From Perna viridis (lineage: Eukaryota), in the NCBI GenBank assembly GCA_037379345.1, contig CM074518.1, positions 17,732,001 to 17,796,000 on the forward strand: a DNA stretch of 64,000 nucleotides, given 5' to 3'. Every line of letters begins with the position of its first letter. Positions within the stretch are counted from its first letter, which is position 1. Made by a program: the position numbers. Shown one piece after another: positions 46,401 through 52,400 of this stretch.

Positions 46401-49400
46401 TCGTCCCGTAAAAACCAACATGGCGGATATTAGTATGGGATTTTCCCGTAAGGATTTGTTACGCACGATTTAAGCTAATAAGCGACTTGTTTTTGAGAAA
46501 CTGTTTGGCTAAACGAATGAGCAAGTCATTTAAGACAATTTAAACGACGGTTGGTGTCAATAAAGTCGTAGAAAATATTTTTATTCAAATTTTAACAGTA
46601 TGTTATTTATGTGACGCCGAGTATAAGTACAGAAACAAACTTCATTGAAAACTTCGTCGACAGCGTCAATACTTCATTAATAACTTACATAAAATTTATT
46701 GTATACCAAACCTTCACTAGTGTCCTTCACGGTATAATGCTTGGTCTTCCGCGTCCACCACGAAACCCCTTTAAAAACGTCTCATTAATTTACTCACTAA
46801 AATAAAGTATGGTTCAAGAGTAACTGTGAGAAAACTGAAAAAAAAAACACTGTACAAGTGGCGTGAATCAGAGATGGATTTATATAAAAAGATCCAAAGA
46901 CCTACAGGAATGACGCTCTTACACATGTATATCTCTCTGGTAAATTGACCCTTCGTTGTATTATAAAACCGACATGTTCTTATAAAACCAATTTTGCTAT
47001 AGCAATTAAGGGACCAGAAGTTATGCCTACCTTATATTTGATAGAAAGGCTTATATTGTAAAGAAGCACAGTTATTCCTCTGAGTGAGATGTTGAAATGT
47101 TGGGATTTGTTGTCGACAATGATTTAGTCGAATTCGGAACACCGTTTCAACATACTACAGAAGACATTTTATGTACCCCTTATGGCTGAAATGTTGCTGC
47201 ATTTATGAGAATCTTGCTTTTTAAATAGCAAATTCAGAGGAAAGGAAAGCGACTAGTGCATTATTTATTAGACAATGTACTATCTCCGGATAATCATAAC
47301 TTCATAGAGTACTTTCATTTAATCTGCCCAAAGTAACTTAAAATAGCAGAGACAATTAATACACATTCCTTCGTTTCATGCTTAGACCTTAATCTATTCA
47401 TAGATTTTTCGGGACGTTTGAAATCGAAACTTAAAGACGAACATGATGATTTTGACTATACGCAGTTGATCCGTTTCTGACATGCATGCATTTTGTACAC
47501 TGACATTCTCAATATATAGAGGATTCTGTCAATGGTTTGTTGATCCTTTGATGATAATCATGTTGTTAACATTACTACATAAAATCTAAGATCGTTATCA
47601 CAATTTGATATATAGATATGTCATTACCGGTTTACATTAATCTCTTTGTGCTGTCTTGCTTTCATTATCTTTAGTGATTGTTTTTATTCTGTTGTCTACA
47701 TGTAAATCATCTCTATTTTCCTTGTCGTCGAATTGTGGCTTCACGTCTGATGTCTCTGAATTGGTCTTGTGCTTTAATCATCATTAAAATGCTTTCAATA
47801 GAGTTAAGTGCATATACCAAATTTAAACTTATCCAACATGTTACGTAAAGTTTCGTTAGAAGAATTAAACCTACTCATTCATATTATTTGACGAAAAGTT
47901 AACCACGTTTATTTCTGGCAAAATATTTTGGATAATTAATTGTACAATTCGATCGAGATTTCATACATAATCTACTTTAGAAATGTCATTATCAATCTGA
48001 ATCTCTTCCTGTATTCCACCATGTGTAGTAGTTGTAAATGATTGTTTCCTTCGTGACCATAATTTACAACGTGGTTTCCGATAAAGTAAATACGGTATTG
48101 TCAGACACAATGATGCGTTGTAAAAGAAAAATGTTGACAAGAAATTGATATGTTTTGGTATAAAATGTCCGGACCCATTCAGAAAATTAACAATGTAGTA
48201 TGGGAGACATGTTAAAAACTGTAGCAAACTTCCATAATATATTATTTTGAAATAGACAATGTGGTCCGGAAGTGACCCAGAATAGTGATGAATAAGAACA
48301 ATCAATCCACAAACTGCAGTAATAACAAAAGGTAAAACAAGAGTAGTTCCGAAAATATAGTATGTTGCCGATCTTTTGTACTTGTTTACAGTTGAAAAAT
48401 CTAGAGAACATACTCCAAGACCTGAAAAAGAGAAAAGAAATTTGAAGTACCTGTTTCTTAAAACATTCTGTAACAGTAAAGTATTGTGTTGTTACTAGAA
48501 TACCTTTGTCATTATATAAATAATAAGAAGTAGTACCTAATTTGTAACAGAATATATACAAATCAACAAACCCTCCCATGAAAAAAATGAAAAACAGATG
48601 AGAAACTAAAAAAAAACCTTTTCATAAATGAAATACATGCTTTTAGATTACTTGTGCTTGATCGAAGCCTATTTCGTATTTAAATGTAATCTGTAATGGA
48701 GTTTACTACATTTTTAACCCCTAAAACACAGTATTATGCGACAGAGAGAAAATTCTTATATAAATAAGCCATCTCTAACGTGGTTTGTTAAATTAATCAC
48801 TTAAGATAATATGGTGTATTACTTGGTTCATTAGAAAACACTAATGGCGTCATTAGAAATGAATCAGCACAGCCATATTTTACAGGATTAGGAACATTAA
48901 AGCAACACTGTTTTACTAGTGTTCATATACGTCATGTTATTATCACATCAACAAGAATTGTAAGTCATCCTTACAAGGAAATCTGCTTCATTTAATTTAA
49001 GGAAAAATAATGAGCATATAAGCCTTCAATTATAACTTACATCATATGGTGGGAACTGTTTAAGTGGTTTGTCGGTTTTTTCTGATATCAGAAGTGGGTT
49101 TGACTTTGATATGATTTTCAAAATCTCCAATTTTAAAAAGTAAAGTATATGAACAAAAATTAATAGTTAACTTATTACATTTTCAACATTTTAGTTTTGA
49201 GACATTGTCAAAGTCATATTGCACCTCTAACAGAATGATAATACAACATATTGACAAATTATGCAATCCATTCGATGTGCAAATAAATAATTTGTCTACA
49301 AATATAGTGAAATGTCAAACATTTATTTGAAATAATATCAAATAATTGAATTTAGATAAGTAACTGTTTAATCTTGATGTCAGCAAGAGTGTAAATAAAA

Positions 49401-52400
49401 GTGTCTCTCATTTTATTTTACATATAAAAGGTTTTATTCAAAAGAAGAAGAAAACACTATAAATAACACCCCTTTTGGTCATGTACAATAAAGGGGCGGA
49501 TTTAGATATTATGAAAAGGGGGAAATCAATAAAAAAAAGGGGCAGATCCAGGCTATAATTTGCTTTTATTTATTAAAAAACAAAACAAAACAAAATCTTG
49601 ATTGAACCAAGTGATACACCATTGCAGTACATAATGATTCGTCCTCAATGAAGCAAAATGCACAAGATCCAGTATCTTGCTTTCTATGAAAAACCCTGGT
49701 ACTTACTCTGGAAAGGCAGTAAGACGTTTTTGTAATTATCCATATCGGTACTGTCAACCATGATGGAGGGTGTAAAGCGTTCAGTTATATTGTCATCAAA
49801 GTGAGTAATAAGGTCATATAACACTGTACCGGAAGTTTGTGTTTCTACGTCTTCCAAGAAAAGCGTCAATGAAGTTGCATCCTGTATTCTAACAGTAAAG
49901 TCTATGTTTCCAGTTTTGCAGTTACTGTGTTCTGTGCGAATAAAAATAGACCACTTCTCCTGTAGATTTACAGAGATAACCCGGCTTATATATTGAATGT
50001 TTTGAATTTCGCCACCACATATAGTTGTGTTGCACAAGAATGAGGCAGCAGATTCCGTAGTTGTGCGGGATAACAGTTCCACGTTAATCATCAACAAACC
50101 TAGAGAAGACAACGATAGTACATATTGGACTTATTTCACTATTTCACTTTTTTTTTTTAAAAAAAACATCATTTTTTTCTGTTATGAATCCGTCTGATAA
50201 TGCACTCTTATTCGAAAGGACATCAAAGGACCCAAGATATTCATGGAAGATAAGTAGAATATTATACCTGTGGAAATCAGAAATAAAATTGCTGTGTTCA
50301 AGATATGTATTCGTTTTGTTTCACATGTCATAAGAATATTTGATTGTTCATATAGACCGAATTTGTCCTTTAGTAGGTTTTCTGTTAAAAGATCAAGATC
50401 ATTTACCATCTATTAGAATTGATTTTGACACCCCATCAAAGTTTTGGTGGGCTCTGCAAAATTACACTGCAGACGGTGAGAAGAAGACTACTGACGAAAA
50501 ATATTTTTTTCCTACCGCCATCACTAAGGGCGATCAATATCGGAAACCACGTATTGTCAAAATGACTCTTTCTGTTGTTACTTTTTGTGGTTTGTTACAA
50601 ATGTGTTAGCTAATGGTAAAATATTTATTGTTTGCGAAAACATTACTATAAATATTAAAACGAGTATTTTGACTTGACCATAACATCTACAACTAGATTT
50701 AAATGTATTAATCTTCTACTCTTTGTGTATAATTGATATTGCATAGTGTTAATAGTTTACACCATTATGTAAGAGCAACATATGTCTACTAATCTGCGGT
50801 TACAATTACATCATAATAAACATGACATTTGGCGTAAATAACAACGTGACATGGGGCCGAGGTAGTTGCATGACACGGAGGTGAAACGATAACAATTTCT
50901 TCTATTGCAGACGTTGTGCAGTTGTGTTTGTTAAATTGTTTTGAGATGACAAATTTAACGCAAATATGACTCCACTGCATAACACCATATCAAAGAAGTA
51001 TTTTGACTTGACCACTGCATAACACCATATCAAAATTCAAAAATACCAGTCGTATATATTATGATTTCCATATGCTGTACACATGTTTCAAGGAGTAACC
51101 TCTTATCAGCAGAATAAGAATTAAATATAAAGGAAAATTAATTGTATACAAGAAGTTCTCAAAACCCTAATCGCCGAAATAGAAAGCCAAGCCCATCAAA
51201 AAGGGGTTCCGCCATTTGCCTTCAATGAATGAAGTATTTTTATAATTTCAATACTGCTAATTTAGATAAATATGATGAATTAAATCTGATATAATTCGAG
51301 TTGGGGTTAGACAGGGTTGGTGAATACCCCCGGTGACTTTTGGTTCACCAACAGTGGCATCGACCCAATTGTTATTAAAAATGTGCCATTTTCATTAAAT
51401 TATGTTTAAGTCAATAAATATTTATACATTCTTGTTGGCATAACCGTCCCTTTCTTTAATAAATTAAACATACCTTTAAACTGTGAATATTCTCCCCATC
51501 CATACATGGGACCAGTGCATAGAAAGAATGCTGTCATATACATTCCAAATATTAGTAACTTCGTGTTTATATCAGAAAACGTCATGGAATAGCTACCGGA
51601 TGATACACATTTGTAAAGTCTGAAAAAAAAAAACGAAAACTATTTTATGAATTTATAATAGGAATGCTGTAATATGTACTTATAACAAGATGGAATATCG
51701 ACGACCTTTAGTTCCGAACAAACCCTACATTTCAGTAGTAAAATAGCTTTTATCGGTAAGTATCTTTTACTACTGACATAGATATAACAGAAATAAAGTT
51801 ATATTTCTTACACACACAAAAAAAAAAAACAAACAATTCATTGGTTAATCAGCATTAATTGTTATAGTCTGTTATTTACTGACTCCATAACAAAATGTAT
51901 GGATCATCATCATATAACACTTTTTTGCTGTATATCATCCTCTCGACCGGAAATCGTGATTCGTATACGTAAATGTATCCAATATGATAATAACACATAG
52001 TGCCAGTATTATAGAGTCGTATGTACACATGAATACCACGTTCAGAAAATCGTTCATACTTGGCCATGTCTCGGATTATATATATATCAAATTCTTGAGT
52101 TACGTTTTTGTATATTATTCATGAGAGATGATAAAAACTATAGGTTGAAAAGAATTGCAATACATGTCAACAAGAAAGAAACACACCAATACGTGTTACA
52201 GTTTTATCTGTTTTTATAAAAAAATCAATTTGGAAGTTGCCGCATGATCACATTTTCCTAGCACGTAATACTGATTATTTAAATCAATACTAGATACACA
52301 ACATAATAAGCAAAAAACAAAAACAAAAAGCAAAAAAACAAAAACAAATACAAACAAAATCACAAGGAAACAATTATTAATCATTTTATGTACGGTATAG

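Follow-up and report, generated by a model that had tools for sequence, protein, structure and literature searches.

The 64,000-nucleotide (nt) window analysed here (Perna viridis, assembly GCA_037379345.1, contig CM074518.1, positions 17,732,001 to 17,796,000; about 31% G+C and zero N) carries on its minus strand, between 47961 and 51619, what are likely to be the last three coding exons of a gene from a Mytilus-type mussel, encoding a lineage-restricted, strongly divergent protein that resembles G-protein-coupled receptors (GPCRs) of class A, with a domain exon of about 130 residues in its second extracellular loop (ECL2). We found strong support that a single exon, symmetric with both boundaries in phase 1 and lying within normal coding sequence, contributes a globular domain (about 130 residues) that separates the end of the fourth transmembrane helix (TM4) from the conserved ECL2 cysteine. 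ECL2 thus comes to about 160 residues, compared with the usual 10–30. Class A GPCRs normally gain recognition domains N-terminally, and ECL2 is a short lid of the ligand pocket; a folded, glycosylated module that one symmetric exon places midway along ECL2 would provide a clear case, from nature, of a domain inserted into the loop of a GPCR, and a model for the gating or feeding of the pocket by such a lid. The architecture is real and unusual, is common to a few close relatives, and is so far undescribed in the searchable literature: no description of it was found in the literature on Mytilus GPCRs, class A ECL2 insertions, long ECL2 loops, or TRADD-N together with seven-transmembrane (7TM) proteins.

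The insert exon and its relatives

The window was searched exon by exon, and the full-length tests used two relatives, P0001 and P0007. Direct reading confirmed that the exons, phases and splice sites of the original prediction are present on the minus strand as described. The features are as follows.

51474..51619, minus strand: coding exon with the end of the second intracellular loop (ICL2), TM4 and the start of ECL2; phase 2 at its 5' boundary, phase 1 at its 3' boundary
50100..51473, minus strand: intron of 1374 nt, GT...AG; by direct reading, with the relatives' proteins continuous across the junction
49707..50099, minus strand: insert exon of 393 nt, phase 1-1, encoding a domain of about 130 residues; by open frame and homology
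48422..49706, minus strand: intron of 1285 nt, GTAAGT...AG, holding the proposed micro-exon; the relatives join PFQS directly to LGVC
48504..48536, minus strand: proposed 33-nt phase 1-1 micro-exon, unsupported; open, with AG/GT flanks only
47961..48421, minus strand: last coding exon, with the ECL2 cysteine (LGVCSLDF), TM5 to TM7, a basic C-terminal tail and the stop; by homology to P0001
47908..47913, minus strand: AATAAA hexamer, possible polyadenylation signal, 48 nt 3' of the stop; by reading

The peptide of exon 51619–51474 reads LYKCVSSGSYSMTFSDINTKLLIFGMYMTAFFLCTGPMYGWGEYSQFK, its translation terminating in ...GPMYGWGEYSQFK, and a single spare G is left before a GTATGT donor. Exon 50099–49707 is preceded by a pyrimidine-rich ...CTCTAG acceptor and followed by a GTAAGT donor. 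It encodes the two N-glycosylation sequons (NTT and NIT) and the three cysteines that had been claimed for the insert, together with the stretch GNIDFTVRI...SLTLFLED. The last exon is entered at 48421 in phase 1, reads (S)LGVCSLDF... and continues through three hydrophobic helices to a TGA at 47963–47961.

When the last exon was searched against the protein library, one of the 74 candidates matched, namely P0001 (E 2.7e-67, 68% identity over 100% of the exon), a protein of 402 amino acids (aa) that is listed at NCBI as 'uncharacterized protein [Mytilus edulis]'. The order of elements in P0001 is receptor helices, ...GWGEYSQFKG, a homologue of the 393-nt exon, S, LGVCTLDF and the remaining helices. 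Comparison of P0001 with the window by tblastn matched precisely the three exons, with E values of 4e-27 (TM4 exon), 1.3e-41 and 1.1e-71, and the TM4 exon was 92% identical to P0001 in the alignment. A search with P0001 returned three proteins from 2817 candidates: P0001 itself, P0007 and P0008. P0007 (408 aa, unnamed) shares 70% identity with P0001 and is laid out alike, insert included. Its longest contig measures 1333 nt for an open reading frame (ORF) of 1227 nt, whereas the same three exons span 3.66 kb in the window; the P0007 ORF is therefore intron-free and reflects either a spliced transcript or a copy of such a transcript. P0008 was rejected as an isoform, because its sequence is that of the last P0001 exon with the reading continued past the stop. 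The claim of a domain-sized exon in ECL2 of a rhodopsin-family receptor was thus borne out: P0001 and P0007 both share the insert, kept in frame between TM4 and the ECL2 cysteine.

HMMER comparison of the insert exon with 1,835,955,588 representatives gave six proteins at E<=0.001, four of which belong to the receptor-insert family: P0002 (100% identical to the window exon, being the window's own ORF), P0001 (58%), P0003 (49%) and P0004 (46%). At the same threshold, the module was found in no other protein context among these representatives. The other two proteins, P0005 and P0006, were dropped as relatives; they are internally repetitive and matched over only about 20–25 residues. P0003 continues beyond the exon end into SKY..., like the window, and a GTAAGTA donor is therefore common to both. 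P0004 and P0003 are identical as far as ...NYQN, with five residues of the exon still to come; beyond that point P0004 differs, which could reflect an alternative donor within the insert exon or another locus. The four distinct insert sequences were 49–61% identical pairwise, with in-frame indels only and zero stops, and two cysteine columns and two N-x-T sequons were conserved in all four. Between P0001 and P0007, identity was 90% in TM2–4 (110/122), 54% in the insert (69/127) and 77% in TM5–7 (89/116).

The proposed 33-nt micro-exon fared differently. Both full-length relatives run from PFQS directly to LGVC, the 11 micro-exon residues being absent from this junction in 2/2, and the stretch 48536–48504 is supported by nothing beyond its splice dinucleotides. 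It is unsupported as an exon and would lie outside the gene. Because the micro-exon is absent in the relatives, the ECL2 length of about 170 residues given in the original prediction was revised to about 160.

The receptor core

Residues 3–118 of P0001 matched positions 11–127 of the Pfam family 7tm_1 (PF00001) with an E value of 7.3e-5, covering TM2–TM4 only, and for P0007 a PF00001.27 label had been precomputed. P0001 had 36 matches in PDB, led by GPR161 (4.4e-6), then rhodopsin chains (3e-4) and Kumopsin1 (0.004), and the best PDB match of the window TM4 exon alone was GPR101 (E 0.058). ESM Atlas features pointed to assorted class A clusters at 0.92–0.95, with an RGR-like cluster only at rank 20 of 30, after adenosine-, kisspeptin- and galanin-receptor-like clusters. 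The cysteine at the top of TM3 in P0001 aligned with a cysteine of GPR161 and rhodopsin, and the ECL2 cysteine (LGVC) was present in the window, P0001 and P0007; a disulfide would probably join the two.

In opsins, the lysine that forms the retinal Schiff base lies in TM7, seven residues before the NPxxY proline. The last-exon peptide has lysines at 13, 15, 58, 89, 115, 119, 125 and 148, none of them in the last helix (about 91–113). The residue seven before the last-helix proline is alanine, and P0001 and P0007 are likewise without lysine there. What remained of the description 'opsin-like' was a weak similarity over TM2–TM4; the opsin assignment itself failed, given that GPR161 outscores rhodopsin and that the last helix has no lysine. 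The mussel protein is of a divergent class A type and is not a retinal-binding opsin.

The switch motifs of class A receptors comprise an acidic TM2 residue, E/DRY, CWxP and NPxxY. Several of them have been lost from the core: in the P0001 alignment the TM2 aspartate aligns with serine and DRY with ERL, and in the last exon CWxP has become C-L-P and NPxxY has become I-P-Y-L-L-Y. The first residue of both P0001 and P0007 aligned just after TM1 of solved receptors, and the window shows TM4–TM7 only. Either the receptor is a six-helix protein without TM1, or the models of both relatives are 5'-incomplete. The loss of the switch motifs, together with relatives that start after TM1, means that signalling may not be canonical G-protein coupling. 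Basic residues are concentrated in the N-terminus, ICL2 and the C-tail. It was also observed that P0001 and P0007 share a basic start, MA.RKRID.

Fold and origin of the insert, and alternative readings

AlphaFold modelling of the insert alone (five aligned sequences; predicted local distance difference test (pLDDT) 68.8, predicted template modelling score 0.65) gave the order beta-alpha-beta-beta-alpha-beta with both helices broken. The elements, with E for strand and H for helix, were E2-10, H16-22, H34-49, E51-59, E64-71, H74-85, H91-98, H102-107, E108-115 and H119-125. The alpha/beta module that had been claimed was thus predicted with moderate confidence. The same alpha/beta order recurred in the full-length model of P0001, the poor quality of which (pLDDT 47) led to its rejection as a structure-search query; the AlphaFold check accordingly succeeded moderately for the insert and poorly for the full-length relative. 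The best Foldseek matches of the insert model in PDB were ferredoxin-like (IS608 TnpA, ABM, ACT and NIPSNAP), with E about 0.01 and TM-scores of 0.37–0.42. An ACT-domain chain, 3c1m, reached a probability of 0.95, but every TM-score was <=0.42. Without a significant Foldseek match, the fold class alone is supported. Against PDB sequences the insert exon had zero matches at E<=10, and a profile of the four insert sequences retrieved two ankyrin proteins (best E 0.65), which were dismissed as noise. A match to PET122 (E 0.0028 on P0001; one of the four inserts) was rejected as chance, being below cut-off and to a yeast mitochondrial family.

These features suggest how the receptor may be arranged. 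The insert would face outward, as the helix count, the positive-inside charge pattern, the two conserved N-x-T sequons and the conserved cysteine pair indicate, and it would be glycosylated and disulfide-bonded. It is predicted to fold as a two-layer RRM/ferredoxin-like sandwich. The N and C ends of this fold would emerge side by side, so that the insert may seat on the helix bundle and cover the pocket like an enlarged lid. Because no other part of the protein evolves as fast, the insert may serve as a ligand- or partner-recognition module, or as a gate of the pocket, on a conserved core. A bolder proposal, which we consider unlikely, is a new receptor class in which a rhodopsin-family bundle, possibly of six helices with TM1 missing, displays in ECL2, outside the cell, a TRADD-N-type module captured as one symmetric exon from the innate-immunity domains that have expanded in bivalves. 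If true, a domain known only as an intracellular adaptor of death and immunity would be used extracellularly, and a fast-evolving recognition head would be wired straight to a 7TM-derived core.

The insert had also been called TRADD-N-like or SEA-like. In the ESM Atlas, the top cluster for P0003 scored 0.93, with 210 of 256 features shared and PF20694 (TRADD-like_N) on 14% of its members; 15 of the 30 matches fell within the PF20694-labelled set, in mollusc clusters, and TRADD itself scored 0.79. Pfam gave no match to TRADD (PF09034, PF20694, PF13820) or SEA in any of the four inserts at E<=10, and none for the window exon at E<=1. No TRADD or SEA chain was present among the 50 Foldseek rows listed. 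Only the Atlas lead to TRADD-like_N clusters therefore remains of the first comparison, neither Pfam (0/4) nor the listed Foldseek chains bearing it out, and the resemblance to TRADD-like_N is suggestive, a lead and not membership. The comparison with SEA was dropped, having no match in Pfam, PDB sequence or Foldseek. The SEA domain (PF01390) has a Gly-Ser self-cleavage motif in its beta2-beta3 turn. The corresponding turn of the insert is C-x-T-G-(N/D) in three of the four sequences and is deleted in the fourth; a cysteine is invariant there in 4/4, and the residue preceding it is tiny in only one. According to the available part of the TRADD-N study (PMC8195603), TRADD-N is an RRM-like beta-alpha-beta-beta-alpha-beta two-layer sandwich with a four-stranded sheet and kinked helices, and its beta2-beta3 turn has a conserved tiny residue and serine (rarely cysteine). 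The same part of that paper describes a great expansion of TRADD-N in bivalves, all as intracellular adaptors; the term GPCR occurs nowhere in the paper (PMC8195603).

Several explanations other than an intact receptor gene with a constitutive insert exon were weighed. Openness of the 393-nt exon is not beyond chance, for when 100 sequences of 64 kb were simulated with matching dinucleotide composition, 28 had an open stretch of at least 140 codons, and the library also lists this stretch as a stand-alone ORF of 135 aa, P0002. Both facts fit a frame that is open by chance, or an exon that belongs to another, nested gene and was mis-threaded into the receptor. Such a reading is already contradicted and highly improbable, given the 49–61% identity across four sequences with indels in frame only, and given that in P0001 and P0007 the insert is part of one continuous frame and is flanked on either side by receptor sequence; the exon stands above chance because of this homology, not because of its openness. 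It is rather unlikely that the window copy is a 5'-truncated or decaying paralogue, with three open 3' exons and without a functional first exon or promoter. Mapping of the upstream exons had been proposed as a check; in the 12.4 kb upstream within the window, the first exon (residues 1–73 of P0001 and P0007) had no tblastn match (51620–64000, minus strand, E<=20), and the copy could therefore be incomplete. The upstream stretch is, moreover, taken up by dispersed repeats and by the broken remains of a Pao/BEL-like element. However, none of the three exons has lost its open frame or its canonical splice sites, the TM4 exon retains its 92% identity to P0001, and genomes of this kind ordinarily contain introns of >12 kb, which means that the first exon may lie past base 64000. 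We also doubt that the insert exon is a cassette, the skipped form of which (...EYSQFK-G-LGVC...) would have an ordinary short class A ECL2 and yield two receptor forms. In-frame skipping, as was claimed, is arithmetically possible through the phase 1-1 symmetry: with both boundaries in phase 1 the frame is kept and a glycine codon is regenerated, and the insertion point becomes a single intron position in the skipped form. Yet the insert is present in both full-length relatives, and no shorter form was seen among proteins of 221–714 residues, the matches (3/2817 and 3/7076) being insert-bearing or last-exon-only. The search for skipped forms covered cluster representatives, the P0001 cluster having six members and the P0007 cluster five. 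A profile of P0001 and P0007 found no insert-less relatives (3/7076 candidates at E<=10), a weak negative that covers cluster representatives only, with no eukaryotic DNA searched.

As for origin, we regard it as possible, though less likely than not, that the domain was not exon-shuffled at all, having arisen in place as an exonised intron or being too old or too fast-evolving to trace, with its TRADD-like_N likeness a convergence. The sequence and structure searches fit this: of the six proteins at E<=0.001 among the 1,835,955,588 representatives, four were the insert's own family and two were repetitive and dropped; TRADD and SEA were found in 0/4 inserts by Pfam at E<=10; the best PDB match of the insert profile was E 0.65; and Foldseek gave nothing at E<=0.001 in PDB or BFVD. 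On the other side, the compact predicted fold and the phase 1-1 symmetry resemble a captured module, the top Atlas cluster for P0003 (0.93, 210/256 features, 14% PF20694, 15/30 matches) points to TRADD-like_N, and the bivalve TRADD-N expansions described in the available part of PMC8195603 are possible donors. Exon shuffling is a candidate origin; no donor was found among the representatives searched.

Some observations weigh against the preferred reading, that of a divergent class A GPCR-like mussel gene with an ECL2 domain exon. The 7tm_1 score of P0001, 22.8 bits, lies below the curated cut-off of 30.5, and the three exon peptides of the window, submitted singly to Pfam, had no family at E<=1 (0/3). 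Six long helices are seen when P0001 is modelled at full length with AlphaFold, but the pLDDT is 47. The fold model of the insert was built on just five sequences, and its Foldseek search returned zero matches at E<=0.001 in PDB and BFVD, with TM-scores of 0.3–0.4. The unmatched first exon belongs here as well. We infer the inclusion of the insert exon at the window locus from the relatives; its extracellular placement, glycosylation and disulfide would follow from sequence patterns, and a recognition function may be read from its variability.

Neighbouring sequences and known systems

Several other elements were observed in the window. Region 1560–6300 is an inverted duplication with 11 arm pairs, 79–99% complementary, and virus-like ORFs. 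The arms surround a minus-strand P-loop ORF of 287 aa that matched Pox_A32 weakly and below the cut-off (E 0.0016), and for which PDB returned only P-loop noise, and its duplicated ORFs are cysteine-protease-like, with a viral cysteine protease as the best PDB match (E 0.52, not significant). We take the region to resemble a Polinton/Maverick-type fragment, as a lead only. Two open stretches on the minus strand, 12701–12976 and 17202–17540, are EF-hand stretches (EF-hand_1 E 1.4e-5, just below cut-off) and are probably exons of a multi-EF-hand gene, presumably calumenin/reticulocalbin-like. An ORF of 270 aa at 24812–25624 on the plus strand matched no Pfam family at E<=0.01 and looks like the C-terminal tail of a non-LTR (long terminal repeat) retrotransposon ORF2. 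Dispersed repeat ORFs at 40997–41263 (minus), 57960–58229 (minus), 60799–61347 (plus) and 62691–62846 (plus) share a ...RLLEQGYVATRLKSSLQKFYG.HH.LVDRYG-type stretch, and the longest copy has no Pfam family. At 54029–57235 on the plus strand, antisense to the receptor gene and in its upstream intron or flank, lies a Pao/BEL-type retrotransposon remnant. Peptidase_A17 was matched twice, by pieces that lie in different frames (E 3.6e-11 and 4.4e-5), and DUF5641 at the far end (E 2.3e-5). The pol-like frame is broken many times, with at least one frameshift within the A17 part, several more frameshifts or stops, and pieces in all three frames, and no reverse transcriptase profile matched in the 10 pieces scanned.

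The class A expansions of Lophotrochozoa match the mussel receptor in taxon and class. As far as the available part of that study goes, they include fast-evolving, bivalve-restricted receptors with intra-ECL2 disulfides and an ECL2 of 25–30 residues, with no mention of a 130-residue module and no use of the word 'insertion' (PMC11886862).

With TRADD-N the insert model would share the beta-alpha-beta-beta-alpha-beta order and an invariant cysteine in the beta2-beta3 turn. Known TRADD-N domains, in contrast, are intracellular, whereas the insert is predicted to face outward, and it has no Pfam match (0/4). If the TRADD-like_N lead holds, the expansions of immune domains in bivalves would be tied to membrane receptors.

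The best solved relatives of the TM2–TM4 half are GPR161, GPR101 and rhabdomeric-type rhodopsins (8kh4, 8w8r, 4ww3/2ziy/2z73; we take 2z73 and 2ziy to be squid rhodopsin, the database entries being named only 'Rhodopsin'). They share W-x-F-G...C at the first extracellular loop and TM3, and P-x-(Y/F)-G-W at the end of TM4. The resemblance is weak and does not extend past one half of the protein, and theirs are a short ECL2 and seven helices. Compared with GPR161 and the rhodopsins, the mussel receptor is without the last-helix lysine, its TM2 acidic residue is serine and its DRY is ERL.

The nearest known case by size is C3aR, also a class A receptor with its TM4–TM5 loop enlarged to about 170 residues. 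Its ECL2, of about 172 amino acids, is described in the available part of PMC10518620 as carrying glycans and as important in the binding of ligand. The two receptors are unrelated in sequence, C3aR being absent from the 36 PDB matches of P0001. In C3aR the ECL2 cysteine comes first and the long part after it, and this part is highly flexible, with only its first 16 residues resolved, according to the same part of that source (PMC10518620). In the mussel receptor, by contrast, the extra residues precede the conserved cysteine, are encoded by one symmetric exon and have a predicted fold.

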